62,066 nucleotides of DNA. Source: a virus (Duplodnaviria > Caudoviricetes). The stretch is taken from the IMG/VR virus record IMGVR_UViG_3300005404_000004, positions 1 through 62,066 of that record. One strand, written 5' to 3'. The position numbers and the translations under genes were made by a program. Shown here piece by piece: positions 40,453 through 60,797 of this stretch. The notes under the pieces are model-generated. The model was not told where the DNA came from, did not search any database, and saw only the letters and a list, made by a program, of their open reading frames with translations. Each line of letters opens with the position of its first letter. Position 1 is the first letter of the stretch.

Positions 40453-43400
40453 TTATTTAAATGCCATATATAAGTATGTATCACCAGATTTGTTCCAATG
40501 TACAGAAGATGAAACAGAACCTCTTGCTACTTTAAATCCATCTGTAATAAATTTACCTGAACCATAAGAAGAAGTACTATTCGCATTTTCAGAGTAGCTT
40601 TCGTTTGCATATAGGTTTTTCTCATCACCCCTTGCTATATCTATTATTTCCCAATTACTTCCGCTACTATCTACATTTTTAACTATAACAAAACTTGGGT
40701 CAAAACCTAATCCTGTTATTTCTTTGCTATAATCATTAGTCCCATCTCCGTCAAACGATCCTATCTTACTGTATCCTGCAACTGAATGCCAACAATAAGC
40801 AATATAAGTACGGCCACTAGTATTAGCATCGCCGTAAGTATTGTTAAGAGTTATATTTGTTCCGTCTATTGAAAATCCACCAGTACCTCCTGTGCTGTTA
40901 GTATTAAGATACAAATGTTTATTAGAAACAACGTTTGTTATACTTGTAATCCAATTGCCTGTAGTTGATATACATTTAAAAATTGCAATATCAGGGGCTG
41001 AAGAGAGCCCATGGCCTACGGTAGAACCACTTGTACCGGTACTTATATATTTTACAATACTAAATCCAGCTTCAGTATTAGCACTTACCGTACTTTCAAT
41101 TGTACCATTGTTATTTCTGGTTAAATGACCAGGGTTGTTAAATGTTACATTTGAAGGAGTCCCTGAATACGTATTGCTAAGATCTCCAGCCCCAACGCCT
41201 AAAGGATATGCTGCTACACAAGACGTGTCCCCTAAGACTTGTAAAGTGTTTATAGTACTGGCTGTTTCATTATAAAGTGTCGTAACTTCTGAAGATGATA
41301 TTGCTTTATTAAATATTCTTACTTGGTCTATATTACCATTAAAAGCATAATCTGTATTTGAACCATTAGATCCTATTGCAAAGTTTTGATTAGTAGGTGT
41401 AGGCCTTGTAGTTGTTTCTGTACCTGAGTTAGCATCTAAAACACCATTTACATAAATTTTCATAGCACCACCTGCTACAACAGTACAAACTACGTGATAC
41501 CATTTATTTTTTAACAAAGTTGTATCACCTCTAAAATAACTACCACCAACATTAAAATATAGTTTACCTGGATAAGAACCATAAGAAACTCCATAAAAAT
41601 ATATACCTATAGGTGATCCCGAATCAGAATTTGTTCTCTGACTGAAAATAATTTGTGCATTACTATCGTTACCTTTATTATTCATCCAAAAAGAAACACT
41701 ATAATCTCCTGAATTAAAAATAGTTTGGTTACCAAAATTTATCTTACTATTACTACCATTAAAACTAGCTGATCTGTTTAACAATCCTCCGCCTTTCCAA
41801 TTCCAAGCTACATAATCTATATTTGATTTATTAGTGGAGGCCCAAGGGTGGTTAGAATTACCACCTTGCCCAAGAAAAACGCCATTTGCGTCATATGAAC
41901 TTATATAGCCATAATTGCTATTTGAAGATGGTATTCGTTCTGGTGAGTTAATGTTCGAGACAAGATAGTTTTCGCCATCTCCTCTTAAAACATCATACAC
42001 CCCATGATCATAACTCCCTGTTCTAGCCTTAAACCAAGTTAAGCTAGGCTCAAACCCTACGCTAGAAATATATCTTGTAGCACCATTTCCTTTATACAAT
42101 ACGGCCTTAAAATTATTTGTATCTGTTTCAGGTTTTTCGTTATAAAGTTGGGTTACTTGAGAGCTTGTAAGTTCAGAATTAAAAATCCTCACTTGGTCTA
42201 TTTGCCCATTAAACCATGCCGCCGCATATGACCCGTTTATATATCTTCCTCCTATTCTAAAAGCATCATATGTATCAGTAATTAATATGGTTGTAGTGTG
42301 AGTACCATCTAAAACTCCATTAACATAAGTTTTAAGAGTTGAACCAATTGCGGTGCCACTCATTGTAAGAACACAATGAACCCAACTCCCTGTATTTATA
42401 CTCTCGCCTGAAGTTGGCCCATAATTTTCTCCATTGCCTTTGCCTGAAGTAGAATATAATTTATTATTATAAACAAACATATTTAACCCGCTAGCGTGAG
42501 AGGCCCCTCCATTAGTTATTATACTCTGAAATGCTGTAGAGGTAGTTTTAATCCAGGCTGAAAAGCTTCTTGCACCACCCTCGGAATTAGGGTTACCAGC
42601 ACTTATATAACTACTACTTCCGTTAAACACTGCAGCTTGACCAAAGCGTCCAAACCTGTACTCTATATTTGTATCTGTTCCGCTGTAATCATACTTTACG
42701 TTACTATCTCCAACGCCACTATAGTTGCCGGATATATCTACGCCATCTCCATCTAATTTATATGTTGCTATTGCTGTTTTACCAGTTGGGAATGCTAATG
42801 TATTAGCTGTACTTACTGTTTCGTTGTTATATAAATTAGCAACATCTGTAGCTGTTAATACTACATTATATACTCTGACTTGGTCTATTGTTCCGGGAAA
42901 ATATTCTCCCGGATAATTAGGCATTGATCCTATTACACATTTTTGATAACCGCTATAGGAATAAGAACCCATAGAATTTGAGTCAGTAGCAACAGAACTC
43001 CCATTCACATATACTGTAGAGCCGCTGTTATTTCTTGTCACAACAATATGATACCAAATATTTGCTGTTGATAAAGTAAAATATACCTCATTGCTTGACT
43101 CATTTCTGTAATGAAAAGATGTTGTTCGGTCAGGTCTTTTACCTAAAGTAAAAGTCGGTCCACCGCTAAAATATGACCCAAATGCAATCTGCCACTTACC
43201 TGATCCAATATCCTGAGGTTTCATCCAAAGAGAAACAGAATGCGCTGTTGAGCTTAATTGTAAAGTTGAATTCTCAATACCGGTTGAATTTCCAACAAAC
43301 GTAGCTCCTTGATTAAATTTGCCCCTTGTTTTACATAAATCTTTACTATTATTATCTAATTTATAATATGCTAAATTTGCTACAGGATAATTTATATCAG

Positions 43401-44778
43401 TTGTTGTAGCCGTATACTCACAAGCAATTTCACCCGCACCATTTCCGTAAAGTTTACTAACTTCTGAAGATGATAATGCTTTATTAAATATACGAACTTG
43501 ATCTATTTCTCCGTCAAAATATTGTGAATACCCACTTGAAGAACTATAAAAAGCTCCTATTGTAACTTTTTGTCCAGAACCATTCCAGCTCTGACTTGGC
43601 AAAGTTATTGAGTCTACCAATAACCTATCTATATAAATAGTCCTTTGGTTTGCTGACTGGTTTATTGACACAACAATATGATGCCAATTGTCATCATTAT
43701 AAGTTGAACTTGTAGTGTGTTTATCTGAAGTGCTTCCGTAATCTGTTACAATTTCAATATTACCTCCGTCTATTGTAATATCACAATTTCTACTGTTTTG
43801 AGCATAATCAGTAAACATTCTTTGTCTTGCTGTTGTGGTTGTTTTAAACCAAAAAGAAACAGCCAAAGTATTTTTACCGCCAAATATTGATGTTAATGGC
43901 AAATCAACATAACTATTACTTCCGTTAAACCTCGCTCCGTATAATGATTTCCCGCTAACGCCAAAGTCTACGTTTGTAGGAGTGCCGTTAATATTTGTAT
44001 AAACTAAATTAGAAGAAGTTGCATTATAATTACCGGATAGGTCATTAACATTATTATTTAAAGTGTATGTTGCATAGCAAGAAGAATCTCCTAAAATTTG
44101 TAAAGTATTTGTTGTTTCCTTAGACTCATTATAAAGCGTTGATACTTCTGCGCTTGTTACTAACCTATTAAAAAAACGAACTTGATCAATCTCACCCACT
44201 AAGCTTGACACACTTTGGTTTTGGTAGCCTAATCTATTATACTTATAGTTTGAGTTTGTATATGTAAGAAAAGTACCATCCCAAGCGGAATTGCCTATTA
44301 ATGAATTATTTATGTATAAAGAAACCCCACTAGCTGTATTTCCGGTCCAAACTATATGATACCAATTACCTACAGTTAATGCTGATGATGTTACCTCTGA
44401 TGTTACAGACGAAGAACTTAAAACTCTTGCGCGTATAGTACCGTTGGTTTCAACATCAATTAAATTATAAATATCATTTAAAAGCTTCATAATAGCTCCG
44501 CCATAACTATTTGTTTGAGCCGCATGCTTATACCATAAAGAAACAGTAAAAGCACTTCCAGACCTCATTGGGTTATCTATTGTGGAAGGTAATTCTACAT
44601 AACTATTGGTATTATTAAACTTTGCAGCTTCACCAAATTTACCACCTCCATCGGAGGCAGAAGCGTCATAGTCTAAAGTGTATAAGGCTACGCCACTATT
44701 ATCTTTGAATATATCTGTGGTATCTGTAAAGCACAAAGGCTTACCTAAGAATCCATAGTTAAATCCTTGTCCAAACAT
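40453..44778 (-). CDS. LamG/concanavalin A-like repeat adhesin (tail fibre/receptor-binding protein)
   Basis: Five DQVR(I/F/V)(F/Y)N LamG units with WYH/WHH/WVH strands; C-terminal YKGNG...GFEPSLTWFK / GFDPSFVIVK repeats. Confidence 0.85.
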   Translation of the reverse strand: MFGQGFNYGFLGKPLCFTDTTDIFKDNSGVALYTLDYDASASDGGGKFGEAAKFNNTNSYVELPSTIDNPMRSGSAFTVSLWYKHAAQTNSYGGAIMKLLNDIYNLIDVETNGTIRARVLSSSSVTSEVTSSALTVGNWYHIVWTGNTASGVSLYINNSLIGNSAWDGTFLTYTNSNYKYNRLGYQNQSVSSLVGEIDQVRFFNRLVTSAEVSTLYNESKETTNTLQILGDSSCYATYTLNNNVNDLSGNYNATSSNLVYTNINGTPTNVDFGVSGKSLYGARFNGSNSYVDLPLTSIFGGKNTLAVSFWFKTTTTARQRMFTDYAQNSRNCDITIDGGNIEIVTDYGSTSDKHTTSSTYNDDNWHHIVVSINQSANQRTIYIDRLLVDSITLPSQSWNGSGQKVTIGAFYSSSSGYSQYFDGEIDQVRIFNKALSSSEVSKLYGNGAGEIACEYTATTTDINYPVANLAYYKLDNNSKDLCKTRGKFNQGATFVGNSTGIENSTLQLSSTAHSVSLWMKPQDIGSGKWQIAFGSYFSGGPTFTLGKRPDRTTSFHYRNESSNEVYFTLSTANIWYHIVVTRNNSGSTVYVNGSSVATDSNSMGSYSYSGYQKCVIGSMPNYPGEYFPGTIDQVRVYNVVLTATDVANLYNNETVSTANTLAFPTGKTAIATYKLDGDGVDISGNYSGVGDSNVKYDYSGTDTNIEYRFGRFGQAAVFNGSSSYISAGNPNSEGGARSFSAWIKTTSTAFQSIITNGGASHASGLNMFVYNNKLYSTSGKGNGENYGPTSGESINTGSWVHCVLTMSGTAIGSTLKTYVNGVLDGTHTTTILITDTYDAFRIGGRYINGSYAAAWFNGQIDQVRIFNSELTSSQVTQLYNEKPETDTNNFKAVLYKGNGATRYISSVGFEPSLTWFKARTGSYDHGVYDVLRGDGENYLVSNINSPERIPSSNSNYGYISSYDANGVFLGQGGNSNHPWASTNKSNIDYVAWNWKGGGLLNRSASFNGSNSKINFGNQTIFNSGDYSVSFWMNNKGNDSNAQIIFSQRTNSDSGSPIGIYFYGVSYGSYPGKLYFNVGGSYFRGDTTLLKNKWYHVVCTVVAGGAMKIYVNGVLDANSGTETTTRPTPTNQNFAIGSNGSNTDYAFNGNIDQVRIFNKAISSSEVTTLYNETASTINTLQVLGDTSCVAAYPLGVGAGDLSNTYSGTPSNVTFNNPGHLTRNNNGTIESTVSANTEAGFSIVKYISTGTSGSTVGHGLSSAPDIAIFKCISTTGNWITSITNVVSNKHLYLNTNSTGGTGGFSIDGTNITLNNTYGDANTSGRTYIAYCWHSVAGYSKIGSFDGDGTNDYSKEITGLGFDPSFVIVKNVDSSGSNWEIIDIARGDEKNLYANESYSENANSTSSYGSGKFITDGFKVARGSVSSSVHWNKSGDTYLYMAFK

Positions 44779-44779
44779 A

Positions 44780-45139
44780 TTATGTTGCAGGTTGCACTAT
44801 AGTATACCAAAATTCAGCTGCAGATATACATAGTATTTGAATTAAATTTTTAGTTCCTGAAGTATCATCATATTCCCCTAAAACCCTATTAAATGTACCT
44901 GAACTACCGCCTACAGTCCAAGTATCTGCTGTATATGAACTACCAGCTCCGGTAACTAATATTATTTTTGTTATTCCTACAACAGGATTTTGTATGTTAA
45001 ATGTCGTATTAGCGTTAGGTGTTAAGGTAAATACCTCAGCGTTTTTAAAGTTAACATTAACTGTTGCACCTGCTGTAAGCGTATCTGTTGTGTTAAATTC
45101 ATCGGCTAATATATCCGACGTTATTTTTGTTAATGCCAT
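44780..45139 (-). CDS. small fibre adaptor protein (paralog of 45973-46326)
   Basis: MALTKIT...FTLTP...GEYDDTSGTKNLIQILC...EFWYTI.QP. Confidence 0.7.
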   Translation of the reverse strand: MALTKITSDILADEFNTTDTLTAGATVNVNFKNAEVFTLTPNANTTFNIQNPVVGITKIILVTGAGSSYTADTWTVGGSSGTFNRVLGEYDDTSGTKNLIQILCISAAEFWYTIVQPAT

Positions 45140-45146
45140 ATTTTAT

Positions 45147-45971
45147 TTATTGAACCCATAATTGATTATTCCATCTATCTGCACCAGAGGGAACAACATC
45201 ATAATAAATACCCCGACCATACCAGTCAAAATAATCATAATCCCACTTGCTTCCCCAGCTATAATAACCACTAGCTCCGTTCCCAAATAGTCTGCCTGCT
45301 GTACCATAACCAGTGTTATTGTCTGTATTTACGGTATAATTACCAATTCCCGTACCTAAGTTTGGCCAGTTCCCAGTGCAAGAACTATAATAATATGAGC
45401 CGTTATGACTATTACTCCAGCCAGAATTAGCTTGTATTTTAGTCCAAATGTATTTTTTATTAACATTAGCACAAGTGTTGCCTCCTGGAAAGCCGGTTGT
45501 ATGGTTTTCACCAAAAGTAGTTCCATTTTCTTGAGCAATTAAAACTATCATGCCAAAATTACCAGGACTTGATGTTGATCTTCCAGATATATTAGAATTC
45601 CATCTTATTTTTCTTGTGCCATTAAAATACTGCCACATATGTATATATCCCTCTGTATTCAGGTTAGTCCAGTCCCCGGTTATTAGACCAGGAGCACTAT
45701 TGTTTTCCCAGCCCGACCAATGGCCTACCCCAGTGGGCCCTATTCTAAGATCTAAAGTGTAATTTAAAGGGGCTTCCGCTGTCCTGTTATACCAAAGCAT
45801 CCATCCACCGCCATTGTTTGCCATATCACAATAAACTTGTTGAGGTGCAGTCCAGCCCGGGAGTTGTATAGAATAAAATCCACTTGTGGTGTTCCCCGCG
45901 TCATATGCTTCTTTTGCAGATGCCCAAACCCCTGTTACAGCAGATGTCATCATTATAGTATCTCCTAACAT
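45147..45971 (-). CDS. fibrinogen-C-like lectin/adhesin
   Basis: SAKEAYDAG...SGFYSI...QVYCDM...GGGWML. Confidence 0.75.
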   Translation of the reverse strand: MLGDTIMMTSAVTGVWASAKEAYDAGNTTSGFYSIQLPGWTAPQQVYCDMANNGGGWMLWYNRTAEAPLNYTLDLRIGPTGVGHWSGWENNSAPGLITGDWTNLNTEGYIHMWQYFNGTRKIRWNSNISGRSTSSPGNFGMIVLIAQENGTTFGENHTTGFPGGNTCANVNKKYIWTKIQANSGWSNSHNGSYYYSSCTGNWPNLGTGIGNYTVNTDNNTGYGTAGRLFGNGASGYYSWGSKWDYDYFDWYGRGIYYDVVPSGADRWNNQLWVQ

Positions 45972-45972
45972 A

Positions 45973-46326
45973 TTAAGCCGGTTGGGTTATTGTATACCAA
46001 AATTCAGTTGCCCCGACGCACATAATTTGTATTAAATTTTTTTTTGCCGAGGTATCATCATAGTCTCCTATTATTTTATTAAATGTATTAGCAGATCCGC
46101 CAACGTTTAAAGTTATAGTATATGAATTGCCAGTACCTGTTATTATAAAAGCTTTTGATATACCAATTACTGGGTTTGTAATATTCAATGTTGTATTTGA
46201 CGTAGGAGTTAGCGTAAATATTTGGGCACTATCATAATCTACAGCAATAGTCGAAGCTGGCGTTAAAGCCGTAACTGTATTAAATCCGCCAGATAGTAGC
46301 TCTGGTTTTACTTTAGTTTGTGCCAT
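45973..46326 (-). CDS. small fibre adaptor protein (paralog of 44780-45139)
   Basis: MAQTKVK...FTLTP...GDYDDTSAKKNLIQIMC...EFWYTITQP. Confidence 0.7.
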   Translation of the reverse strand: MAQTKVKPELLSGGFNTVTALTPASTIAVDYDSAQIFTLTPTSNTTLNITNPVIGISKAFIITGTGNSYTITLNVGGSANTFNKIIGDYDDTSAKKNLIQIMCVGATEFWYTITQPA

Positions 46327-46329
46327 TAT

Positions 46330-46890
46330 TTAAGTTGTTGCTATTAATTGATACGTTGGTCTTTGAAAAGTATTTTCACTACCTCCAAAATTATAAATGT
46401 TTTTGCCTATCCCTACTCTATAACTACTAGTATTATACGAACCAATTCTATATTCTAAAGTTTTATCACTAGTCCAAGTCCCTATTATTCCATTAGCAAT
46501 ATTTTCCGAGGATGCACCCACTTGGAGGCATCTTTGTACGTTTACTGTATTGTAATAATCGTCAGCCCCTCCGTAAAGAGAATCATGAGATGTAGTTACA
46601 TTTGTACTATCCACATATATAGAGGTAAGCCATATGGCGCTAGTTGATCCTTCCTTTACATAATTAAAATTCATAGCAAATAATAAATTTTTAGTTCCTT
46701 CAGGAGGTGTATAGGAAATAGTGCTACCAAAATCTGTAAAACTAGCTGGAGCGACTGCATACGAAGTTACATTATCTGCTGTTTTATCTCCATTTACCGT
46801 TTTTATAGTTCTACCATCTGGCTGCCAAATCAAATGTTCTAATACATTTGTGCTACTAGCTGCTGGAAAAAATGTTGATAGATTACTCAT
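46330..46890 (-). CDS. fibre tip/receptor-binding-like protein (paralog of 60016-60591)
   Basis: NVLEHLIWQPDGRTIKT...NVT...YTPPEG...GTWTS..TL. Confidence 0.65.
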   Translation of the reverse strand: MSNLSTFFPAASSTNVLEHLIWQPDGRTIKTVNGDKTADNVTSYAVAPASFTDFGSTISYTPPEGTKNLLFAMNFNYVKEGSTSAIWLTSIYVDSTNVTTSHDSLYGGADDYYNTVNVQRCLQVGASSENIANGIIGTWTSDKTLEYRIGSYNTSSYRVGIGKNIYNFGGSENTFQRPTYQLIATT

Positions 46891-46891
46891 A

Positions 46892-49800
46892 TTATTGTCC
46901 TATTATTACCCAGCCTTGATCAACGCCAGAGTATATTAATTCAAAACTAGCAGATGCCGTATCTAATGTTAAATTAGCTACTGCACCCATAATTTTTTTA
47001 TTGTTTGCTCCTAACACACAAGTTGCAACACCAGACCTATTAGATATTTTAATACTGTCCCCAATTTGTGGATTAGCAGGCAGCGTTAAAGTTAAATTAG
47101 CTGTTAACACATATACACTATTTGCTACTGCCGTTGTATTACTTGATATAACACCTACAGTTGGCCTTGTTGATGGATTAGTTAATAAACCACCACCGTT
47201 TATAGATATTACCTCAATTGTATAATTAAGATCCGGGGCAGTTGTAAATGTTATAACTCTGTTCGATAAAGAATACGTAGATTTTTCTTGGTATACACCT
47301 TGTAAAAATACCATCGTAAACTTTTCATCTGTAGGATTACCGTTTACAAGAGTGAATGCTGTTTGACTTCCTGTACCGGTAAATCCATCATATTCCATAT
47401 ATGATGACTGTTGTACATTAACAGCATTAATATGCATTACTTCTATAGTATAACCATTTTGTGGTGCTGTACTGAAAGTAATTATATTATTAGCAACTAC
47501 ATAAGTTGACTTTTCTTGATATACACCTTGTATAAATACAAAAGTAAAATCTTCAGATGTGGGCGCAGCACTAAGTGTAAACCCTGTTGTGCTACCATTT
47601 CCTGTAAAAGTATTTTTATTTAAAGCAGAAGCACCATTAACCGTTACAGTAGCAACATGTATAACCTCTATATTATTTGTGCCCGAAGGTGGCGCTGAGC
47701 TAAATGTTAATACATTGCCTGAAGTGCTGTAATTTAATTTAGACTGATATACACCATCAATATATACCTGCGTATGTATTTCATCTGTAACCGCGCTTGA
47801 TAAGGTAAACTGCGTTGTTGAACCATTACCTGAAAAAGTATTTCTTTCAATAGTAGATGCATCTCCACCACCACCAGCAATAGCACCCCATTGAGTAGTA
47901 TACCCTTCAAATTGATTGTCGGTAGTATTATATCTAAACATACCGGCAACTGCAGAACCTGGTCTTTGTGCTGTAGTACCATCAGGAACTCTTAAAGCAC
48001 CTGTAGTATTAATATCTATTATTTGCCCTGATTCAGATATAGCAGAGTCTGCAAGTGTATCTGAATCACTAAACTTAGGAAGTGCATTAGCACTACCGGA
48101 TCCATCTATAAAACTTGAGAGAGCAGGCGGAGTGTATGTAAATACCCCAGTTGAATTATTATATGCTAATGATCCATCTCCCGAAGGTGAGCCTTCGGAA
48201 CCTACAGATATATCGGTTAATGAAATACCCGCTGGTAGTGCTACATTTTCCCATCTAGCATTTGAACTATTATAGCGTATAATTTGGTTATTAGCTATAC
48301 TAGCTATGTTTACATCTTGTAAATCACCAAGTGAAGCTGAAGCCGATACGCCACCTAAATCAACAGATGCTAAACCTCTAAATGCACCAGCGGTTAATAT
48401 TTTTGCTTGAGCTGCATTGTTAAGAGCACTTGCATCACCTTTCATTATAATAGCACCAAGATATATAGCTTGATTAGAAGTGTTTTCCGCTTCTAAAAAG
48501 TCTTCAAGTATATATTCTTTTTCAGCATCAAGTAGCGAATCATATACATTATGTCCATAATAAGACACAACAATATTAGGTGTACCTGGAAAATAAAATA
48601 ATCTTTGTGCCGCAAATTTAGTACTAGTTACATTCTGTAATGTACCCGATCCATTATCATATTTTGTTGGATCTAATACAGTGTAACCATTACCGCTAGG
48701 TCCGTCGTCTAAAACAAAACCACCTGAGTTGTTTCTATAATACCTATGTATAACACACTGCGTTTTAGCAGAGTCTGAAACGGTTGATGGGTTTTCAGGG
48801 TCAGCAGCATAATTTCTACCTAATGCAAAAGCAACACCGGCCGCTCTATTTATAGATAGATTAGCACCATTTGCAGTTACTTTATGCCCTGATTTTTTAA
48901 GTGGGCCAAATATATTAGCAAACTCGTTTATCTGACTTGTATTGTCGTAAGCTGTTATAGGAAATGTTTTTACAAACTTAAGCACACCTTCAGTGTGTAT
49001 AGCACTTCCTATTGTTATATTGTTTCTCTTTTGAGCGTCTGTAAATGCAGTTGCTTGCTGTTGTACAGCACCATTTGCATCTACATATATCCACGAGTTA
49101 AGCTGCTGCGTATTACCGGAGTCTAAATTAGATACTGTAATAGTTTGCTGCGACCAAGAAATCTTTTTAATTTCAGGGTGTGGATCAGAACCACTCGCTT
49201 TATTTATATCGTTTATTATACCATCGCCCGCAGCAATAGTAAATTGTGTACCGTTGGCAACAGATAGTTCACCACCGTTTAATATACCGGTTGATAATAC
49301 TTCTGTTAAATAATCAATACTTAGATCTTTATCGTCGTATCTAAAATGCAAAGTATCATTACCACTTTCGGTACTAAAGTATATACCGTTATCAAATGTG
49401 GGCGTAGAGCTTTGAGCGTTAGATAGTTGGATAGAATCGCCAACCGTAAGATCACTTGCTATTGTTACATCGTTAGGTAAACCTACAGTCCATGTTCTAT
49501 TTGCTGATAAATCTTGCGCTCCACCTGCTACGTCAATTTCATTTGCAGTGCCCTGTACTGTTAATGTAGTAGAAGGGCTTGCTATAGCTGGTTTATTTTG
49601 TATGAATGCGTCATTTGTATTATCCGATTCATTCCAATTTGACTGTACATTAACTTCTGCATTTGTAGCTATGCTATTTAACTTAGCTAAAAGTGCTGAA
49701 GTAAAATCTTCAGTTGATAAACCTTTGCCGGCAACCTTATCTTCTTTAGTAGCCATAGTGGTATTAAGGCTAGCTATAGAAGCATTGTTTGCTTTTATAT

Positions 49801-51324: not shown

Positions 51325-51325
51325 A

Positions 51326-51709
51326 CTAAGCTGTTATAATATAAAATGTATTCGGGTCGTATAAATCTACTTGGTATCCGGAAGCAGCTGCTGATGTATA
51401 TGCAGGCGTAAAGCTTACAGTTACGGTTGTACCAGAAGGCACTGCTGAAACAGTACCTTCCGTCCTTGTGGTATTACCACTAGTTCCAGTTACAAATACA
51501 GTTGCGTTTACCGAAAATATACTTGATGACGTTACTGTAAAAGTTACAGAAGATGCACCTGAAGGATTACCACTTGTAGTAGCACCCGTTTGTTTTAAAG
51601 CATCATATTGTGCTTGGGTACCTTTCCAAAAGTTTAATAGGCTTTCATTGTTTCCAGTAGCAGCTTTATAATAATGCTGTCCACCTATTCTTGTTGTTAA
51701 ATTTGCCAT
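51326..51709 (-). CDS. small fibre adaptor (W.GT..QY...NT.Y motif with insert)
   Basis: FWKGTQAQYDAL ... DPNTFYIITA. Confidence 0.65.
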   Translation of the reverse strand: MANLTTRIGGQHYYKAATGNNESLLNFWKGTQAQYDALKQTGATTSGNPSGASSVTFTVTSSSIFSVNATVFVTGTSGNTTRTEGTVSAVPSGTTVTVSFTPAYTSAAASGYQVDLYDPNTFYIITA

Positions 51710-51724
51710 TTTTTATTTTTTATT

Positions 51725-52669: not shown

Positions 52670-52670
52670 A

Positions 52671-52829
52671 TTATGCTGTTACGAAGTAAAGTGTATTTGC
52701 GTCTTTAGACCCAATTGCTGCATATTGCGAAGCAGTACCGGTCCATATTAAAGAATCGTTAGCAGAGTTTTGGTCATCTACTGCATTGGCTAATCTAGCT
52801 GGTGGATAAAAAGTATTTATATCTGCCAT
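52671..52829 (-). CDS. 52-aa fibre adaptor peptide
   Basis: Manual ORF MADINTFYPPARLANAVDDQNSANDSLIWTGTASQYAAIGSKDANTLYFVTA fills the gap exactly. Confidence 0.7.
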   Translation of the reverse strand: MADINTFYPPARLANAVDDQNSANDSLIWTGTASQYAAIGSKDANTLYFVTA

Positions 52830-52832
52830 AAT

Positions 52833-53144
52833 CTATGTTATTAAATATCCAATAGTGCTATTTAAGTATACTAACCGCACTGCTTGGTTGTTATTTACTG
52901 TTATTGATTGATTAGATGCTTCAATTAAAGCCGAAGCAATTGTTACGGTACCCGTACCTAAATTTTTAAGCAATACTGTACCGCCTTGTTCCATTGTTGC
53001 CGGAAGCGTTAGTGTTAAACTATTAGAGCCTTGAACTACATATATACCATTTTGTACTGCAGTTGTATTGCCTGTTATAGCACCTCCCGTTGAGCTGGAT
53101 ATTCCTAGAAGTCCAGCGCTTGGTAAATCTATTTGTAGTCCCAT
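52833..53144 (-). CDS. small fibre adaptor (LTLP...Y...G domain)
   Basis: SLTLTLPA...GGTVLLKN...VRLVY...GYLI. Confidence 0.65.
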   Translation of the reverse strand: MGLQIDLPSAGLLGISSSTGGAITGNTTAVQNGIYVVQGSNSLTLTLPATMEQGGTVLLKNLGTGTVTIASALIEASNQSITVNNNQAVRLVYLNSTIGYLIT

Positions 53145-55270
53145 TAGCTAATTCCATTTATTACCCAACCATTAGCAGCATCAGTATAAAACAGCTCAAA
53201 AGAAGAGGTCTGTTCATCTAATACCAGTGAGGTAGTTCTCATTATTTTTTCTGACCCATTTGGGTTTATTGTCCAGGTATATGCTGATTGCACATAATTA
53301 CCATTTGCATCAAAAGCAGAAAGATTTGTAAACTTAATACTGTCTCCTGCCACTCCTGCGGGTAAAGTTAAAGTTCTATCCGCAGTTATATTACTTAATA
53401 TATAGTATTTCCAAGCTACAGCTGTTGCATTAGCTGTTAATGCACCTCCATATTCATACCCTTGTTTTAATACTACAGCACCGTTAGTGCCCGCTGCGGC
53501 AACGATTAAATTATTAAAGTCTATAGATGCAACTTGTACGTCTGTATTTCCTCCAAAATCATAACTAGCCCCATTTGCAGAAGCTAAAACATTTAATGCG
53601 TTTTGCGATATAGCTTTTGTACTAGTATTATAATATAAATAATTATTTGTACTAGCAGTAGGTATATCATTTAACTTTAAAACTTCTGAATTTATGTTAA
53701 ATTCACTTGTATTTACTGTTAACGCACCGCTTCCTTGTTTACCAAATGTAAAACTATTATTAGAATCATTAATAGAAACTATTTGATATATATTTACAGA
53801 TGTATCATTTATAAGTTGCCCTTGTGCAGGGAATGCTGTAGTATATGTCGACTCAACAAAATATAAAGATTGGTTTGTGGGTATTGCCCCAAACAGTGTA
53901 TTTATACTAGCAAAGTTAGAAGCGCTGGCTGTAACACTTGTGCTACCGCTTGTTATAGATATTCCTGCTACTGAGGCAGGCGAGGTAGCAGCTTGGAACA
54001 AAGTGCCGTTGCTTTGTCTTATACCATAAAACATTCGGCCCATAGTTATATTGCCACTTGGGCCAGCTAGAGTTTCTGATAATCCTGGTAATATAGCCGC
54101 AACACCTGAGTTTAATTCAGGAAGTGTAAAATAATCCGAAGCTATTTGTAATTTTGTAAGTGTACCTTGATTAACTAGCCCAGATAAACTTGAAGGATTT
54201 CCAGCTACAGCAACTATCTGCGCACCTGTTGGTGCACCTGTTGAGTCTTGTAAAGATATACCCGTAGCGGATAATACAGCTCTGTTACCATTAGTAGCAA
54301 TAGCTGTAACAGTATTTTGGCCCATAATTGTGCGGCCATCATTTGCAGTAGTATTAGAGTCTACTACTAAATCTTGCGTAAATCTAGTAGAGTTAGATAT
54401 TATGTTAGACCCATTTCCTGATATTAATAAATCAGATCCGTCTGTACCTAGAGTAACATTAGGAGCAGTATCACCAAAAACAATTGTAGACTCGGAGTCT
54501 TTCATGTTGATTGCCCCATGCATATTTAAATTCCTTGGGTCATTATTGGGATTATCTGTACCTATTGTAACGTCCCCTGAGTCTATAATTAGATCTCGTG
54601 TAATTTTTAATTTGCCAACTACTTGAGTTTCAATTTGTTGTGCTCCTGTTAAAAAAGTAAATTCTGTAAAAGCAGTTTGGCCCCCTGTATATGCTTGATC
54701 TAATGTTACATTAAAGCACCACTCAGTATATTTATTATTGCCATTTGTTACATATTTACTGTCATTAGCGGCCGGTGAATCTGAAGTAAAAGTTGGTGCA
54801 TTGAAAGATGTTACCGTTCCTGTATAAGTTGACCCGCCAAGAGTGCCTGTAAAAGTTGCTGAATTTGTTGCAAAGTCTGCTAAATCATAATCAACAGCAA
54901 ATTGTCCGTCGTTATAATCTCTTATAATTAAAAACACTTGGCCTGTGCCGAGTGTATTCAAATAAATATCGGCTCCGGTGTTTACCGTAGCACTTTTTAA
55001 TACAACATTTGTAAGCACCGAACCTTTTAATGTTCTTACTAGCGCTTTTTCGTATGCTGTACCTTCTCTGTTTACTGAAAGAAAGAAGCCTAAAGGAACA
55101 GAGTCGGGAATATTATTTACAGTATTCCCGTCCCCTATTATATAAGTCTTTAGACTATCTATCGTATAATTTTTAGTTGCTAATGCGGATGAAGAATTTG
55201 CATCAGTACCCAAAAGCTTATCGCTTCCTTCGACAGTAGAGTCTATGGTATATGTACTGATTCTTGCCAT
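53144..55270 (-). CDS. tail fibre/hub protein
   Basis: MARISTY...DKLLGTDA N-term; C-terminal TLTLPAG..GDSIK...KIM...FELFY...GWVI. Confidence 0.7.
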   Translation of the reverse strand: MARISTYTIDSTVEGSDKLLGTDANSSSALATKNYTIDSLKTYIIGDGNTVNNIPDSVPLGFFLSVNREGTAYEKALVRTLKGSVLTNVVLKSATVNTGADIYLNTLGTGQVFLIIRDYNDGQFAVDYDLADFATNSATFTGTLGGSTYTGTVTSFNAPTFTSDSPAANDSKYVTNGNNKYTEWCFNVTLDQAYTGGQTAFTEFTFLTGAQQIETQVVGKLKITRDLIIDSGDVTIGTDNPNNDPRNLNMHGAINMKDSESTIVFGDTAPNVTLGTDGSDLLISGNGSNIISNSTRFTQDLVVDSNTTANDGRTIMGQNTVTAIATNGNRAVLSATGISLQDSTGAPTGAQIVAVAGNPSSLSGLVNQGTLTKLQIASDYFTLPELNSGVAAILPGLSETLAGPSGNITMGRMFYGIRQSNGTLFQAATSPASVAGISITSGSTSVTASASNFASINTLFGAIPTNQSLYFVESTYTTAFPAQGQLINDTSVNIYQIVSINDSNNSFTFGKQGSGALTVNTSEFNINSEVLKLNDIPTASTNNYLYYNTSTKAISQNALNVLASANGASYDFGGNTDVQVASIDFNNLIVAAAGTNGAVVLKQGYEYGGALTANATAVAWKYYILSNITADRTLTLPAGVAGDSIKFTNLSAFDANGNYVQSAYTWTINPNGSEKIMRTTSLVLDEQTSSFELFYTDAANGWVINGIS

Positions 55271-55407
55271 TATTTATTTTTTAATAAAGTTCCCTTAGAA
55301 TTATTTTTAACTCGTCTAGTTATTGGCACCATACAATCACAAATTGTTCTCTTGCAATCGCATAAATCTTTTCCTTTACCTAATAAACTTATTTTTTTAC
55401 TTTTCAT
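55270..55407 (-). CDS. small basic Cys-containing protein (45 aa)
   Basis: Manual ORF MKSKKISLLGKGKDLCDCKRTICDCMVPITRRVKNN...; TAATG coupling. Confidence 0.5.
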   Translation of the reverse strand: MKSKKISLLGKGKDLCDCKRTICDCMVPITRRVKNNSKGTLLKNK

Positions 55408-55409
55408 AA

Positions 55410-55766: not shown

Positions 55767-55769
55767 TTT

Positions 55770-56219
55770 TTATTTTTTTTGTTTGTTAAATTTTTTAATT
55801 GCTTGGCTATATACTTTATCTATATACCGTTCGCGCTTCATTATTTTATTGCGCTTAGTAGACTCAGGTAAATTTTCTTCACCTATAAGTATTCTATATA
55901 TTCTATTTATTAAATATTTTCCTTTGTGGCTTACTTTATATTTGTTATGGTCCCCTATTCTTCCTTTGCCCATATGGACTTTTTCAATCCAACCTTCTTT
56001 TTGTAATCTATAAAACCTTGTTTTATCCCAAGAATAATATAAAGTACCGTCTTTAAAGTCATTAATTGTAAAGTAAAAAATAGGGTCTAAATAAAACAAA
56101 AGCTCTAAATCTGCCACACCTAAATTATTATTAATACAGGCCCAACGTGATACTAATCTATAATTTTTTAAAAAATCTACTTTTAACTCTCCTCTTTCAA
56201 CAAAATCAGATCGATCCAT
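55770..56219 (-). CDS. winged-helix (MarR-like) DNA-binding protein
   Basis: LGVADLELLFYL...RLQKEGWIE...YKVSHKGK pattern. Confidence 0.55.
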   Translation of the reverse strand: MDRSDFVERGELKVDFLKNYRLVSRWACINNNLGVADLELLFYLDPIFYFTINDFKDGTLYYSWDKTRFYRLQKEGWIEKVHMGKGRIGDHNKYKVSHKGKYLINRIYRILIGEENLPESTKRNKIMKRERYIDKVYSQAIKKFNKQKK

Positions 56220-56470
56220 TATAAAATAGCAACTACGTCTTTAAGAGCTATAACTTTGTATAGTTCATCGCTATACTCTATATCGTGGCCTGAAACTTTA
56301 TCGTATAATATTTTTTGCTTTTCTTTTATTACATCTGGTCCAGATGACATTACAATTCCTTTGCGGTAGCGCATTTCTTCATGCTTATCCGCAAGCTCTA
56401 AGCCTCCAGCTGTTTTTTTAATATTTTCAGCTATGTCTTTTATAATTATGTAATTGCCTATTGCTATCAT
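56219..56470 (-). CDS. groES: co-chaperonin GroES
   Basis: Mobile loop KKTAGGLEL, GIVMSSG, final DVVAIL; coupled to groEL. Confidence 0.85.
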   Translation of the reverse strand: MIAIGNYIIIKDIAENIKKTAGGLELADKHEEMRYRKGIVMSSGPDVIKEKQKILYDKVSGHDIEYSDELYKVIALKDVVAIL

Positions 56471-58050
56471 TCTTCTCTAACATTTGAAATTACACAATCA
56501 GTGGAAAGAATAGTAGCAGCTACAGATACAGCATTATTTAAAGCTGTTTTTGTAACAAGGAGTGGGTCTACAATACCACGATTAATCATGTCTTTAATAC
56601 ACCCACAGGTAACATCAACACCTTCGCCCCATTTGTTTAAACTATATGAAGCAGGTTCTAAACCAGCATTTTTAAGTATTTTGGTAAAAGGCGCTGCTAG
56701 AGCTGATTGCAATATTTGCAAACCAGTTAGCATTGCTCCGTTTAATTTCATAGGATCTGTGTCCATAACGGCAGCATACGCAAGTGCTGATCCACCCCCG
56801 GGTAATATGCCTTCTTTTTTGGCAGCACGAACGGCGTGTATAGCATCATCTACTCTGTCTTGTTTTTCTTTTAGCTCTACTTCAGTATCTGCGCCTACAA
56901 ATATTACTGCAACGCCGCCCGATAATAAAGCTAATCGATCATTTAAATGTTTAGTCATTACATGATGATCTTCTTTTTCAAGAACAGTTTTTAAATACTT
57001 AATTCTGTCTTGTACTTCTTTTGGCTTATCATTAACCATAAGTACAGTACCATCTTTATCTGAAAAGGCTTTATCAGCCGACCCTAGCATGTCAGGGGTG
57101 ATTGCATCAATTGAATCACCCAGCGTTTCATCAAAAACTTTCGCACCGACAAGCAACGCTAGATCCTCTAGTATATCTTTTCTTTTAAGTCCAAAACTTG
57201 GAGGGTCTATAACGTTGACCTTAATGTTGCCCTTTACTTTATTCATAGCTAAAGCCGCTAGCGGTTGCGACTCTAAAGGAGCAACAAGGAGCATTGATCG
57301 ATTGGACTGTATCGCATACTCCAAGATGTCTTGAATTTTTCTCATGTTTGGAATATCCGAAACACTTAAGAAAATTAAAGGATTATCTAGTTCAGTAATC
57401 TCTTTTTCATTATTAGTATAAAAATGAGGACTTTTGCTTACTGAACCTATTTTTGTGCCTTGTACCGCTTGCACATAAGTTTCGCTAGTAGGAGAGCTTT
57501 CCATGGTAACAACCCCATTATCACCTGCTTGATTAAAAGCTTTAGCTATTATATCACCTAGCGCTACATCGTTATTGGCTGATATAGTTGAAACCTGCAC
57601 TAACTTTTCTTCTTCTATAGGTATAGCTTTTTTATCTAGTATTTTTATAATATGATCTTTAAAAAGATCCATACCTTTTCTTATATCTCTAAAAGAATGC
57701 TCATACCCTTTTGCTGAATAGTAATAGTCAATAATAGCTTTTGTAAGTACTATGGAGGTAGTTGTACCATCACCTGCTACAGCTGCTGTTTTTTGTGCAG
57801 CTTGCTTCATCATAGACACTGCAAGATTTTCTATAGGATCTTGAAGTAATATGCTGTTTGCAACAGTTACACCGTCTTTAGTTACTTGAGGACCACCGAA
57901 GTCGTCTTCTATAATAACAGTTTTACCGCTAGCTCCTAAAGTCGAGCCAACGGCATTTGCTATCTTATTTATTCCATTAATTAACTTTTCTTTTGCCTCG
58001 CCGTCAAAATACATTTTTTTAACAAGCTTAGGCCCACCGAATTGTGCCAT
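56467..58050 (-). CDS. groEL: chaperonin GroEL
   Basis: VTKDGVTVA, AGDGTTT, PSFG..RK..LED, GILPGGG, GIVDP..VTK.AL.NA.SVA. Confidence 0.96.
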   Translation of the reverse strand: MAQFGGPKLVKKMYFDGEAKEKLINGINKIANAVGSTLGASGKTVIIEDDFGGPQVTKDGVTVANSILLQDPIENLAVSMMKQAAQKTAAVAGDGTTTSIVLTKAIIDYYYSAKGYEHSFRDIRKGMDLFKDHIIKILDKKAIPIEEEKLVQVSTISANNDVALGDIIAKAFNQAGDNGVVTMESSPTSETYVQAVQGTKIGSVSKSPHFYTNNEKEITELDNPLIFLSVSDIPNMRKIQDILEYAIQSNRSMLLVAPLESQPLAALAMNKVKGNIKVNVIDPPSFGLKRKDILEDLALLVGAKVFDETLGDSIDAITPDMLGSADKAFSDKDGTVLMVNDKPKEVQDRIKYLKTVLEKEDHHVMTKHLNDRLALLSGGVAVIFVGADTEVELKEKQDRVDDAIHAVRAAKKEGILPGGGSALAYAAVMDTDPMKLNGAMLTGLQILQSALAAPFTKILKNAGLEPASYSLNKWGEGVDVTCGCIKDMINRGIVDPLLVTKTALNNAVSVAATILSTDCVISNVREE

Positions 58051-58078
58051 TTGATTTGATTTGATTTATATAATTGTA

Positions 58079-58381
58079 TTAACAATTCCATTTGCGTCTT
58101 GCGGCTCTACCTCTTTCCGAGGTCCAGCCTTTAGATCTCGCACAGAATGACTTTCTGCGTTTTGCAGCTTTACTTCCTTTTTTAAGTTTGGAAGGTGGTG
58201 TTGTAACCGCAGTCTTCAGTTTACTACCAGGATTGTCCCTGCGATATTTAGCAACACCTTTACGGGTCATTCCGCCACCGGCTTTTTTCCCTCTACCACC
58301 GCCTTTTTTAACTTTAGAATAATATCCCAAAGACTTCTTTTTAGAAGGGGCTGGTGGTTTACGTCTTTTTTTAGGAGGCAT
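58079..58381 (-). CDS. small highly basic phage protein
   Basis: GGMTRKGVAKYRRDNPGSKLKTAVT...KRRKSFCARS...ARRKWNC. Confidence 0.75.
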   Translation of the reverse strand: MPPKKRRKPPAPSKKKSLGYYSKVKKGGGRGKKAGGGMTRKGVAKYRRDNPGSKLKTAVTTPPSKLKKGSKAAKRRKSFCARSKGWTSERGRAARRKWNC

Positions 58382-58384
58382 TAG

Positions 58385-58687
58385 TTATATTTCGTCTAAT
58401 AGTTCTTTATTTTTTTTAGCCTTGGACAGCTCATCTACTACTTCTTGACCGTCTGATTGCCCTTTTTCAAAAGCAGCACCCATTTTTTCGTACTCGCTAG
58501 GTTGTTCTTCGTCGCTAACCATTTCTGAACTAGCTTTTTCTGCTGCATACATATCGCCAGGGGCAGTAAGTGGTGCTCCAGCCATTTTATACAAGTGAGA
58601 TGCTTTTATAAGATTTGAATCTCTTTCACTAATATTGCCTTCGGTGTGCTTTTGCTTGGTACCGATTTTCATTCTAAAATTGCTCAT
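58385..58687 (-). CDS. hypothetical protein
   Basis: ORF track; in operon. Confidence 0.6.
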   Translation of the reverse strand: MSNFRMKIGTKQKHTEGNISERDSNLIKASHLYKMAGAPLTAPGDMYAAEKASSEMVSDEEQPSEYEKMGAAFEKGQSDGQEVVDELSKAKKNKELLDEI

Positions 58688-58920
58688 TTTTTTTCTTTTT
58701 TAGTTCCTTTCCCGTCGTTTCCGCGGTTTCGTTTAATAGTTTTAAATTTACGGTCTTTATGATCATAGTCTTTACCGGTCAGAGAACGCCCCGCCTTCTT
58801 TGCAGCTCTACGTTTTTTTTGGCTATCCGCTTTTTTTCGTTTGCGGTCTTTGGATTTTGCATATCGCAAATCTCTTTTTGCCTTAGCCGCTCGGGCTCTT
58901 TGGGTTAGTTTCTGACTCAT
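58684..58920 (-). CDS. small highly basic protein (degenerate HNH-like DYDH...NRG)
   Basis: K/R-rich; GKDYDHKD...KRNRG. Confidence 0.6.
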   Translation of the reverse strand: MSQKLTQRARAAKAKRDLRYAKSKDRKRKKADSQKKRRAAKKAGRSLTGKDYDHKDRKFKTIKRNRGNDGKGTKKEKK

Positions 58921-59342
58921 TCGCCTATGTCTTTATTTAAGTAGCTTTTAGCAGCTACTCTGTCATCGTAGTCAAGTGCTGCTTTTAGGATAATTTTATC
59001 CATAACATCATCTTGATTTTTCAACATTTCCTGTTGTAAATTAATTACCATTCTTTCTAAGTCATCTTTAGACTTAACTAGTAATTCAATTTGATGATCT
59101 CTTTTTTCTACTTCGTTCTTTAGTGCATTTACGTCGTCTGGTTTTGTACCAGTTATTGCGCTAATTACTACGGGGATTGATGCTGCTATAGTTCCAATGA
59201 GCATCATCACAACTTCTTTGTTTGAATCTAGCACTGGAAATTGTAACAATGTTACTATTATAGCTATTACAAACAAAAATATAAATAGCGATCCTCCGTA
59301 AGATCTTAATTCTTTAGCTACGCCGTTTTTTGGTAGTGCCAT
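58917..59342 (-). CDS. membrane protein (2 TM + coiled coil)
   Basis: Two hydrophobic segments followed by heptad repeats. Confidence 0.7.
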   Translation of the reverse strand: MALPKNGVAKELRSYGGSLFIFLFVIAIIVTLLQFPVLDSNKEVVMMLIGTIAASIPVVISAITGTKPDDVNALKNEVEKRDHQIELLVKSKDDLERMVINLQQEMLKNQDDVMDKIILKAALDYDDRVAAKSYLNKDIGE

Positions 59343-59610
59343 TCTTTTTTCTTTTAGTAGTTTTACGTCTTATTTGAGATGTCTTCCTACCCATACCTAC
59401 GCGTTTCTTTTCCGCAACAGCCTTGCGTTTTTCTGAAGAACTCATTTCTCCCCAGGTCTTAACTGTTTTTCCGGACACCCGTCTCGATGGGCGACACTTT
59501 TTTGTATTTTTATTTTTAGTAGAACCGCAAACATTACCTTTTTCGTCGGTCCACTTTTCTTTAAACCAACGTTTAAGTGCTAATCCTTTTTTAGTTTTCC
59601 TTACGGCCAT
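59314..59610 (-). CDS. small highly basic phage protein
   Basis: LKRWFKEKWTD..G..CG...KCRPS..VS.KT..T..EMS. Confidence 0.7.
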   Translation of the reverse strand: MAVRKTKKGLALKRWFKEKWTDEKGNVCGSTKNKNTKKCRPSRRVSGKTVKTWGEMSSSEKRKAVAEKKRVGMGRKTSQIRRKTTKRKKNGTTKKRRS

Positions 59611-59762
59611 TATTTTTTATGAACTTTCTGAATGTTAAAGTTAGCATATAAAGAAGCCCCTTTGTGCTTTACAAACTTTCCAGTATGCTTCATTAGGTTA
59701 TATCCATTACCTTTTTTCATCCAGTGATAGCCAGCAGGCGCCTTAACCTTTTTTGCTGCCAT
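59610..59762 (-). CDS. small basic protein (50 aa)
   Basis: Manual ORF MAAKKVKAPAGYHWMKKGNGYNLMKHTGKFVKHKGASLYANFNIQKVHKK. Confidence 0.65.
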   Translation of the reverse strand: MAAKKVKAPAGYHWMKKGNGYNLMKHTGKFVKHKGASLYANFNIQKVHKK

Positions 59763-60000
59763 CTTTTTCTATTACGCCTTTTCCTATAAGGACGTCTTTT
59801 TGAGTTATTTTACCGTCACCTGATAAATCGTCTAATTTTGTTAATGCGCTACCAACCTTATCAGCAACTTTTTTAGCTATGATTTTTTTACCAATAGCCA
59901 TAGCTATAGCAGGTAATGCTTTCAGAGGAGATCCGCAGGGTTTGCTTTTGCCACTCATTCCAGCAGCACCTAAATTTTGTGGTCCTATTCCGTTTTTCAT
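59743..60000 (-). CDS. small protein with an EF-hand/dockerin-like loop
   Basis: DLSGDGKITQKDVL fits DxxxDGxIxxxD. Confidence 0.6.
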   Translation of the reverse strand: MKNGIGPQNLGAAGMSGKSKPCGSPLKALPAIAMAIGKKIIAKKVADKVGSALTKLDDLSGDGKITQKDVLIGKGVIEKDGSKKG

Positions 60001-60015
60001 ATTTTCTTTTTTATT

Positions 60016-60591
60016 TTATGAGTATGCTGTTATTTTGACTACAGGCTTGATAAACTTAGTTGCATCACCAGTACCATCCCAATTCCACAGCAAATGGACT
60101 CTGCCTTGGTAAGAAGAGCTATAGTCTCTTACTGTAGCCTGTATAGTTCTAGCCGACGTCCATGTGCCTACTTGCTCACTCGCTGCATTTTCAGTACCGT
60201 TTATTCTTATATATGCACCTGCGGTAAGCCAAAAGTCTCTCAGTTCTGGCGCGTAGTAGGTTCTTCTACTCTCTGTTATATCTGTAAGCGTTCCACTGGA
60301 ATTGTCGAGCTGCACCTTAATATGGTATATTGTATTAGTGTCAAGATACCCGACATTAAACCCTAGCTCATAATATACGCCTGTAGCCCCGGTAGGAGGG
60401 GTGTAATCTATGTTACTCCCCGTTAAAAGCACATGCGAGCTTGTTGTATTTTGGATTGCTGTAACGTTAGGCACTGTAATATTGCCCTGGCTAGTAGTTA
60501 TAGTTCTACCATCAGCTCTATAAACAATCTGCTCTAGTATATTACCAAATGATGCGTCTATAAGATTTTTCTTTACTTTAGTCCTACTCAT
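60016..60591 (-). CDS. fibre tip/receptor-binding-like protein (paralog of 46330-46890)
   Basis: NILEQIVYRADGRTITT...NVT...YTPPTG...GTWTSARTI. Confidence 0.65.
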   Translation of the reverse strand: MSRTKVKKNLIDASFGNILEQIVYRADGRTITTSQGNITVPNVTAIQNTTSSHVLLTGSNIDYTPPTGATGVYYELGFNVGYLDTNTIYHIKVQLDNSSGTLTDITESRRTYYAPELRDFWLTAGAYIRINGTENAASEQVGTWTSARTIQATVRDYSSSYQGRVHLLWNWDGTGDATKFIKPVVKITAYS

Positions 60592-60779: not shown

Positions 60780-60797
60780 TTTTTTTTTAAACGCAGG

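Follow-up and report, generated by a model that had tools for sequence, protein, structure and literature searches.

Putative C-terminal sockets and N-terminal plugs in the tail-fibre gene cluster of an uncultured podovirus-like phage

In phage T4 the consecutive genes of the long fibre (gp34-37) correspond to consecutive fibre segments, and an N-terminus of the gp9/10 type anchors to the baseplate. In other phages a secondary receptor-binding protein docks by a conserved N-terminal peptide of 7-29 amino acids (aa) onto a gp10-like domain, an arrangement that has been modelled and experimentally confirmed, as has that with separate adaptor proteins (PMC6872550, PMC13352976, PMC8825819). For instance, in Klebsiella podophages KP32, K11 and KP34 and Escherichia coli phage G7C (gp66/gp63.1) a small β-domain of the primary fibre or spike receives the short N-terminal peptide of a second receptor-binding protein, and the tips are exchangeable (PMC6872550, PMC13352976). 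In K1-5 and SP6 a separate small adaptor (gp37) with a gp10-like domain holds two tailspikes, whose conserved N-terminal peptides have 7 and 11 residues (PMC6872550). The four tailspikes of CBA120 (TSP1-4) form a multi-tip complex via small β-domains; the N-terminal part of TSP4 (TSP4-N) is ordered AD-XD1-XD2-XD3, and its binding sites are XD2 and XD3 (PMC8825819). The present analysis concerns the putative tail-fibre cluster found at 40453-60591 of a 62,066-bp IMG/VR virus record (IMGVR_UViG_3300005404_000004; estimated completeness 95%), the whole of which is called the window below. A first-pass annotation of the window had read C-terminal domains of this cluster as sockets for the N-terminal plugs of the next proteins, and had known of no description of such a grammar. 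For the principle that claim is wrong: a docking domain plus an N-terminal peptide, and separate adaptors, are already known from Klebsiella podophages, K1-5, G7C and CBA120.

What the cluster encodes is probably the receptor-binding apparatus of a podovirus-like phage, made up of short chains of separate socket and plug proteins. In the Klebsiella phages and G7C the docking domain is T4 gp10-like domain 2/3, located near the N-terminus (PMC6872550, PMC13352976), whereas the sockets described here are XD1-like and C-terminal, several socket classes are apparently orthogonal, with many matched subtypes, and chains would reach up to four proteins. The lineage also differs, since the system is known from an uncultured record and the hosts are probably marine Flavobacteriia. 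In contrast to K1-5 and SP6, where one adaptor serves two tailspikes, each adaptor of 52-127 aa appears to hold one partner, the smallest being a 52-aa plug plus socket, and at least three families of adaptor occur side by side. CBA120 TSP4 is the best structural match of one socket type, but at 14-16% sequence identity and with XD2 and XD3, not XD1, as its binding sites. As in the serial T4 fibre, gene order would follow segment order. However, there is no significant sequence similarity to T4, which is a myovirus with a baseplate, and the adaptors are far smaller here.

Twelve minus-strand open reading frames (ORFs) are tightly packed at 40453-55270, with stop-to-start distances ranging from an overlap to 15 nt, and the gene for p191 stands apart at 60016-60591 (proteins are named by their length in aa). 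Plug classes are written Na, M-x-N/D-(L/F/I)-x-x-x-F; Nb, a (K/Y)(L/K)G start; Nc, MxxTK; and Nd, M[FL]G. The socket classes are the A domain, the C_D domain and the Phage_tail_C motif (class B). The parts and their putative roles are the following.

53144-55270, minus strand: p708, root fibre 1; anchor common with p1195 at aa 1-49 (55124-55270)
53150-53446, minus strand: C-terminal A domain of p708 (aa 609-707), p708 subtype, ending ...GWVINGIS
52833-53144, minus strand: p103, extension or adaptor; MGLQIDLP N-terminus and one A domain, aa 21-103 (52836-53084)
52671-52829, minus strand: p52, two-ended adaptor; plug MADINTFYP, aa 1-11 (52797-52829)
52677-52748, minus strand: Phage_tail_C of p52, aa 28-51 (PF24243, E 1.8e-13)
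51725-52669, minus strand: p314, tip; N-terminal (K)LYKGT repeats (Nb plug) and Gly_rich_2 (PF21722, E 1.1e-11)
51326-51709, minus strand: p127, adaptor; MANLTT start, Phage_tail_C split by an insert of ~65 aa
50479-51324, minus strand: p281, tip; N-terminal region with ALKLGTATVTKGYIG (Nb-type)
46892-50479, minus strand: p1195, root fibre 2 (hub); anchor at aa 1-46 (50342-50479), Phage_fiber_rpt
47645-47845, 47420-47617 and 47192-47392, minus strand: three DUF4183-like repeats of p1195 (Pfam)
46895-47155, minus strand: C-terminal, hub-type A domain of p1195 (from a hidden Markov model, HMM, of the A domain)
46330-46890, minus strand: p186, tip; plug MSNLSTFFPAA, aa 1-11 (46858-46890)
45973-46326, minus strand: p117, adaptor; Nc peptide MAQTKVK... 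and C_D β-sandwich, aa 18-117
45147-45971, minus strand: p274, tip; plug MLGDTIM and fibrinogen-C-like region (PF00147, E 5.7e-8, residues 20-81 only)
44780-45139, minus strand: p119, adaptor, paralogue of p117 (55.9% identity)
40453-44778, minus strand: p1441, tip; plug MFGQGFN..., five Laminin_G_3 domains and DUF7483
60016-60591, minus strand: p191, tip, paralogue of p186; starts with Nc peptide MSRTKVKK

Six putative tips are thus recognised within 40453-60591, namely those with Gly_rich_2, with the Fibrinogen_C-like region and with five Laminin_G_3 domains, the p186 and p191 pair, and p281, for which Pfam and PHROG searches gave no match. Each non-terminal protein would end in a small docking domain. 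One type would be an XD1-like β-sandwich, present as the A domain in p708, p103 and p1195 and as the body in p117 and p119, and the other would be the 26-aa Phage_tail_C motif of p52 and p127. As a rule the partner would be encoded by the following gene, 0-3 nt further on (p52 starts 3 nt after p103, and p314 1 nt after p52). Its first 7-15 residues would make the contact, most likely as an extra strand along the sandwich edge beside the socket's own C-terminus, and the assembled proteins would presumably be trimers. The wiring proposed is p708 to p103 to p52 to p314; p127 to p281, with the upstream partner of p127 left unassigned; p1195 to p186; p117 to p274; and p119 to p1441, p191 standing alone. 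Both roots would use one virion anchor. With plugs and sockets this short and matched by subtype, recombination at the junctions could exchange tips and adaptors, which would explain the chimeras seen in relatives.

The motifs on which the first-pass annotation rested are real, with one correction for p127. The N-terminus that it had noticed in both roots is common to p708 and p1195 (40.8% identity over the first 49 aa, E 1.2e-5), and the C-terminal ~496 aa of the two proteins are also related (24.8% identity, E 1.4e-15). The A domain (LTLP...GW), said to occur three times, is homologous in its three copies (p103 versus the C-terminal end of p1195, E 3.4e-9, and versus that of p708, E 2.4e-4); the HMM built from them found 56 copies in the window and 51 related loci. 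Three proteins do begin with MSNLSTFFP, MADINTFYP and MANLTT, two of their genes lying directly after an A-domain gene (p186 after p1195, p52 after p103). The third protein is p127, which comes after p314 in the window, and a p127 homologue in L005 follows a p103-like gene directly. The p117 and p119 paralogues (E 2.9e-50) are each followed, 1 nt on, by a gene starting MLG or MFG, as had been described. The tiny proteins p52 and p127 both match PF24243 Phage_tail_C (50.0 bits, and 35.3 bits from the first half of the profile only; gathering cut-off 23.7), but the motif does not simply end both of them: in p127 it is split, residues 25-38, near the N-terminal end, matching profile positions 1-14 while the NTFYIITA half stands at the C-terminal end. 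A relationship that had been missed is that p186 and p191 are full-length paralogues (30.6% identity over 183 aa, E 1.9e-19) which differ only in the first ~15 residues. The first hint of a modular exchange of N-termini came from this pair.

About 125 related loci were compared. The first set consisted of 51 related viral loci fetched through p117 and p186, and the second of 80 more (77 new) fetched by the hub A domain alone, blind to the downstream gene. Among 626 non-redundant adjacent pairs of the first set, genes ending in an A domain were followed by an Na start in 17/21 cases, those with a TEFWY-type C_D domain (D1) by an Nd start in 29/32, and those with Phage_tail_C by an Nb start in 6/7 when scored by regular expression; scored by eye the latter figure was 9/9, with a further 3/3. 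The same plug classes are rare after other genes (Na, Nd and Nb in 8, 6 and 7 of 556, respectively). All four exceptions for the A domain were p708-type A domains followed by the MGLQIDLP of a p103-like protein, and p708-like genes were followed by a p103-like gene starting MGL[QT]ID[LM]P in 4/4 non-redundant cases. In the second set an Na-like start came after 48 of the 49 non-redundant hub-type A genes, and M[FL]G came after TEFWY-type C_D in 13/14.

The agreement extends to subtypes. Five A subtypes pair with five plug subtypes, and at least five C_D subtypes each have a distinct partner start.

C_D subtype TEFWY: partner starts MFGQ or MLGD
C_D subtype TPEFFYTISQQAT: partner starts MIG[TAV]SQL and is encoded directly upstream
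C_D subtype TEIFGTISNYT: an 80-aa gene, then MAINERL
C_D subtype DYW[LI]SISQ: a gene of 150-186 aa, then M.LNKRL
C_D subtype FFYS[IV]AT: partner starts MLNRRFL

In the A domain the co-variation can be followed to single residues: T1174 of the hub is replaced by N or K in exactly those hubs whose partner has F, not L, at plug position 4. Tip bodies of one kind are, in turn, found with different plugs. Gly-rich tips carry an Nc plug in 16 cases, Nd in 21 and Nb in one; LamG tips carry Nd in 15 and Nc in five; and p186-like tips carry Na in 12 and Nc in one. Six, four and five body families are found with Na, Nd and Nb, respectively. The breakpoints of these chimeras are sharp and located at residues 7-15. 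For instance, p1441 and the tip of L076 have a common body from CFTDTTDIFKD onwards and differ in the first ~14 aa, p274 and a Gly-rich tip of L002 have only the seven residues MLGDTIM in common, and p191 and an adaptor of L046 only MSRTKVKK.

It might be argued that the conserved starts are DNA or RNA elements of the junctions, such as recombination linkers or signals for translational coupling, and that adjacency reflects nothing but inherited cassettes. Stop and start codons do overlap or lie 0-3 nt apart, the loci are related and the breakpoints fall exactly at the junctions. However, conserved plug positions use several synonymous codons (e.g., all four for Pro and all four for Gly), which indicates selection on the peptide. 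The conserved stretch also covers the first 7-15 codons and varies together with residues ~20 aa before the stop codon of the socket gene, the pairing is kept in the C_D subclass D1b, whose gene order is inverted, and the complex model described below uses exactly these plug residues. An origin of the starts in junction elements alone is therefore extremely improbable.

The fold of the sockets was approached through AlphaFold2 models, in which p103 and p117 are β-sandwiches (predicted local distance difference test, pLDDT, 85.4 and 90.1). Via its model, p103 matches best CBA120 TSP4 residues 78-175 (Z 12.0, root-mean-square deviation 2.0, 88 aa), and also CpaA, StcE, T4 gp9 (Z 8.8) and gp10 residues 18-146 (Z 8.2), unrelated rows scoring at most 4.1. 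The p117 model matches, at Z 9.4-7.5, entry 9ny6, the KP1 baseplate, TSP4-N 50-181 (8.5-8.7), T4 gp10 20-152 (7.8) and gp9 66-168 (7.5), with unrelated rows at most 3.9. In superposition on the TSP4 chains, both the A domain and p117 coincide with XD1 and with neither XD2 (189-250) nor XD3 (265-335), the limits of these domains being taken from PMC8825819. The predicted sockets are therefore like T4 gp9, the connector of the long tail fibre, and the gp10 of the gp10-gp11-gp12 assembly in having the XD1 fold. A Pfam search of p117, p119 and p103 at E≤10, including PF07880, gave no match, and hhalign comparison of the A, C_D and repeat profiles with single T4 gp9 and gp10 sequences was not significant (probability below 2% for gp9). 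One relative of p117, P0116, matches T4_gp9_10_N in its N-terminal 40 aa only. Between the A and C_D profiles hhalign gave a probability of 0.8%, which is not significant, so no common sequence family is claimed for them.

The first-pass annotation had suggested modelling a trimeric A domain with the MSNLSTFFP protein. A model of hub residues 1097-1195 and p186, each in three copies, had an interaction score (ipSAE) of 0.87, versus 0.00 for the best of three controls; the ipSAE mark applied is reached by 58/80 solved complexes and by 2/110 mismatched pairs. The runs had 100% contact agreement, with a partner pLDDT of at least 91. The whole confident interface on p186 consists of residues 1-5 and 7-11, and on the hub side of residues 1155, 1163-1164, 1166, 1168-1178, 1192 and 1195, residues 1170-1174 touching plug residue 4. 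The model supports binding of the p186 plug by the hub A domain.

Several points weigh against the socket-and-plug reading. The modelled complex is a single cognate pair, and it was built from alignments of 11 rows and as trimers, unlike the complexes with which the tool was calibrated, so that the calibration holds only roughly. The loci are mutually related; conserved gene order therefore makes the adjacency counts too high, and the Fisher P values cannot be read as probabilities of independence. Regular expressions for the motif classes were set after the data had been seen, and ORFs in the loci were called by a script that accepts ATG starts only. The lone exception of the second set, L118, has an Nc adaptor after its hub. 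A strict rule of socket gene first and plug gene next breaks down in D1b, where the tip gene lies upstream of the adaptor and not downstream, and in the D2 subclasses, where a further gene, of 80-186 aa, stands in between. Finally, a single hub socket is followed by three Na tips in tandem in L003, L007 and L076.

Two further objections concern the docking domains themselves, and they are also the best arguments for an explanation in which the plugs are real but bind a common tail site or a chaperone, the C-terminal domains being fibre-end caps or spacers. XD1 has been held to be a spacer that is unable to bind a trimeric partner, its termini lying on opposite faces (PMC8825819, Chao et al. 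2022). Phage_tail_C, in turn, ends the fibres of other phages that have no known partner there, such as 80alpha FibU. In addition, N-proximal A domains in tips of 400-500 aa have no Na gene after them. This explanation does not account for the co-variation of socket and plug subtype by subtype, nor for proteins made of plug plus socket only (p52 with 52 aa, and forms of 61 and 41 aa), which have no other obvious role, and the model of the hub A domain with p186 also speaks against it; it is quite improbable. If the C-terminal domains are sockets, as is preferred here, their placement at the end of the protein would free the distal face of the XD1-like domain and so remove the obstacle seen in the spacer.

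The motif Phage_tail_C deserves separate mention. It ends fibres in the solved entries 9d93 (gp4) and 6v8i (80alpha FibU), and the 80alpha structure paper reports the FibU C-terminus as not resolved. Pfam labels it a phage tail tip domain. In contrast, in the loci described here it is always followed by another protein, so it would act as a joint, a role that was not found in the literature examined. In L097 (2989-5825) it ends an 860-aa root-type protein starting MAIIYSYP, which is followed by an overlapping 84-aa protein with a KIKLGSTSINKIYFG start.

Fused forms were also sought. In 15 of the 20 non-redundant proteins with an internal A domain, this domain runs after ~10-20 aa into the start of a Gly-rich domain that resembles the split plug MSNFSDFFPAAGGGG. 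On sequence grounds these proteins look like the fused counterpart of socket plus plug. The corresponding fusion of Phage_tail_C with Nb gave one match among six candidates drawn from longer proteins, with the motif again at the extreme C-terminal end, which is weak evidence that such a form does not exist.

The remaining part of the first-pass annotation concerned the hub repeats. It had matched three FTGNG...GVYQ repeats of p1195 with three proteins starting M(A/S)xTK(V/I), and hung all tips on the two roots. The parts are real: three repeats of ~66 aa (879-945, 955-1020 and 1030-1096) match DUF4183 (33.9 bits for p1195 against PF13799, gathering cut-off 25.1), and the three MxxTK proteins are p117, p119 and p191. 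A full tree, in which the three repeats hold these three proteins so that all six tips hang on two roots, is favoured by the 3:3 ratio of repeats to Nc proteins in the window, in the near-complete G005 (100%) and G002 (99%) and in L007, as well as by the positional orthology of the repeats across hubs. The repeat profile also matches the tail adaptor 7y22 (E 4.5e-9), the N-terminal region of the K1 depolymerase 9k4a (E 9.5e-6) and, weakly, TSP4 residues 210-254 (XD2; E 0.019); 38/38 aligned repeats match DUF4183 at E≤1, and 18/38 match Phage_T7_tail. Full-text literature searches for the PDB codes 7Y22, 9K4A and 9D93 gave no relevant paper.

However, the counts differ in other relatives, being 3:1 (L076, L081, L090), 4:2 (L087), 4:3 (L109, L018, L025), 2:3 (L098), 2:4 (L128), 3:2 (G003, 85% complete) and 2:1, and for this reason the count correlation was rejected as a rule. 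The hubs of four loci (L097, L100, L103 and L111) themselves begin with the Nc peptide, some p117 relatives carry a T4 gp9/10-type N-terminus instead of it, DUF4183-like repeats also occur upstream of C_D in non-hub proteins and the repeats have no significant hhalign similarity to T4 gp10. The full tree is unlikely. Because of the unequal counts and the Nc-starting hubs, Nc is treated here as a third anchor: the MxxTK peptide of p117, p119 and p191 could dock to the tail or to the hub. A single tree on two roots is unproven, and several short chains fit equally well. The comparison with relatives proposed in the first-pass annotation thus gave a divided answer. Pairs A, B and D of its socket-and-plug scheme are supported, by adjacency, co-variation of subtypes, chimeras and, for one of them, a complex model, whereas pair C, for which the match in number of repeats and MxxTK proteins fails in relatives, is not. 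Taken more widely, the XD1-like terminal sockets and Phage_tail_C may form an orthogonal connector code of at least ten matched socket and plug subtypes, with chains of up to four proteins and with swaps of tips (Gly-rich, LamG, fibrinogen-like and p186-like) at junctions of 7-15 codons. To this wider reading we give slightly less than an even chance.

Some genes of the relatives adjoin the parts discussed above. The tandem p186-like Na tips (L003:8216-9997, L007:7793-9542 and L076:7137-8894) are possible competitors for a single socket, or may assemble into mixed trimers. The gene of 80-186 aa between adaptor and tip is conserved (L005:10921-11451, L046:11245-11799, L128:7317-7877 and others) in several C_D subclasses, with starts such as MKAIEINGxIKT or MKARLExGKVVKYN; its product could serve as another adaptor or as a chaperone of assembly. 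At many loci (for instance, L009:12130-12507 and L015:6077-6448) Gly-rich tips are followed by genes of ~120 aa that start with MAHFA or MAHYA and are likely fibre chaperones. The window has no MAHFA/MAHYA gene, despite its Gly-rich tip p314.

With respect to the phage itself, the large terminase gene (TerL; 36286-38514, minus strand) encodes a protein with 44% identity to that of the Flavobacterium podophages vB_FspP_elemo and 63% to that of MW202828, deposited as Podoviridae sp., and it also matches Cellulophaga, Tenacibaculum and Maribacter phages. The nearest isolates are podophages of Flavobacterium and Cellulophaga, and these relatives point to podovirus morphology and a host among the Flavobacteriia. 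Portal, holin, endolysin and a GroEL/GroES pair are all encoded in the window. The closest deposited TerL relative, MW202828 (L070), lacks the fibre cluster; in its region 9278-51503 GroEL/ES and the same head genes are present, and only small genes and one 648-aa protein replace the 15-kb cluster. Neither megablast of the fibre cluster nor tblastn of p117 gave a match in 50,697 phage records, megablast showing no near-identical DNA, so that no annotated isolate there has a p117-type adaptor at the thresholds used. At 90% identity the p117 family falls into 392 clusters, of which none has a Pfam domain and all are named 'hypothetical protein'. The literature on Cellulophaga and Flavobacterium phage tail fibres gave no description of this system by title or abstract among the matches listed, which is not proof that it is unpublished.

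Other genes of the window can be mentioned briefly. Two minus-strand stretches, 56219-58050 and 38734-39312, encode the pair of GroEL (527 aa) and GroES (83 aa), placed upstream of the fibre genes, and a second protein, of 192 aa, which matches the PHROG 'co-chaperonin GroES' (E 2.2e-26); GroEL/ES adjoin fibre genes in relatives too. Between p191 and GroEL, at 58079-61120 (minus strand), about ten small proteins (49-141 aa), extremely rich in Lys and Arg, are encoded; they are kept in relatives and may be internal or DNA-associated virion proteins. Further minus-strand ORFs encode a virion structural protein of 1450 aa whose C-terminal parts are tail-fibre-like (PHROG 693, 30742; 24100-28452) and a 2257-aa product (13937-20710), both without A, C_D or repeat modules.

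The system establishes no new principle. It would extend that of docking domain plus peptide from enterobacterial phages to abundant, uncultured phages of marine type, with a different fold (XD1) and motif (Phage_tail_C) in the role of the socket. The host range of phages is set by their tips. Mapping which peptide mounts which tip on which adaptor turns a block of hypothetical proteins into a wiring diagram. If the connector code holds, the position of a tip would be predictable from sequence alone, and these loci would offer many natural, apparently orthogonal connector pairs for the study of fibre assembly.

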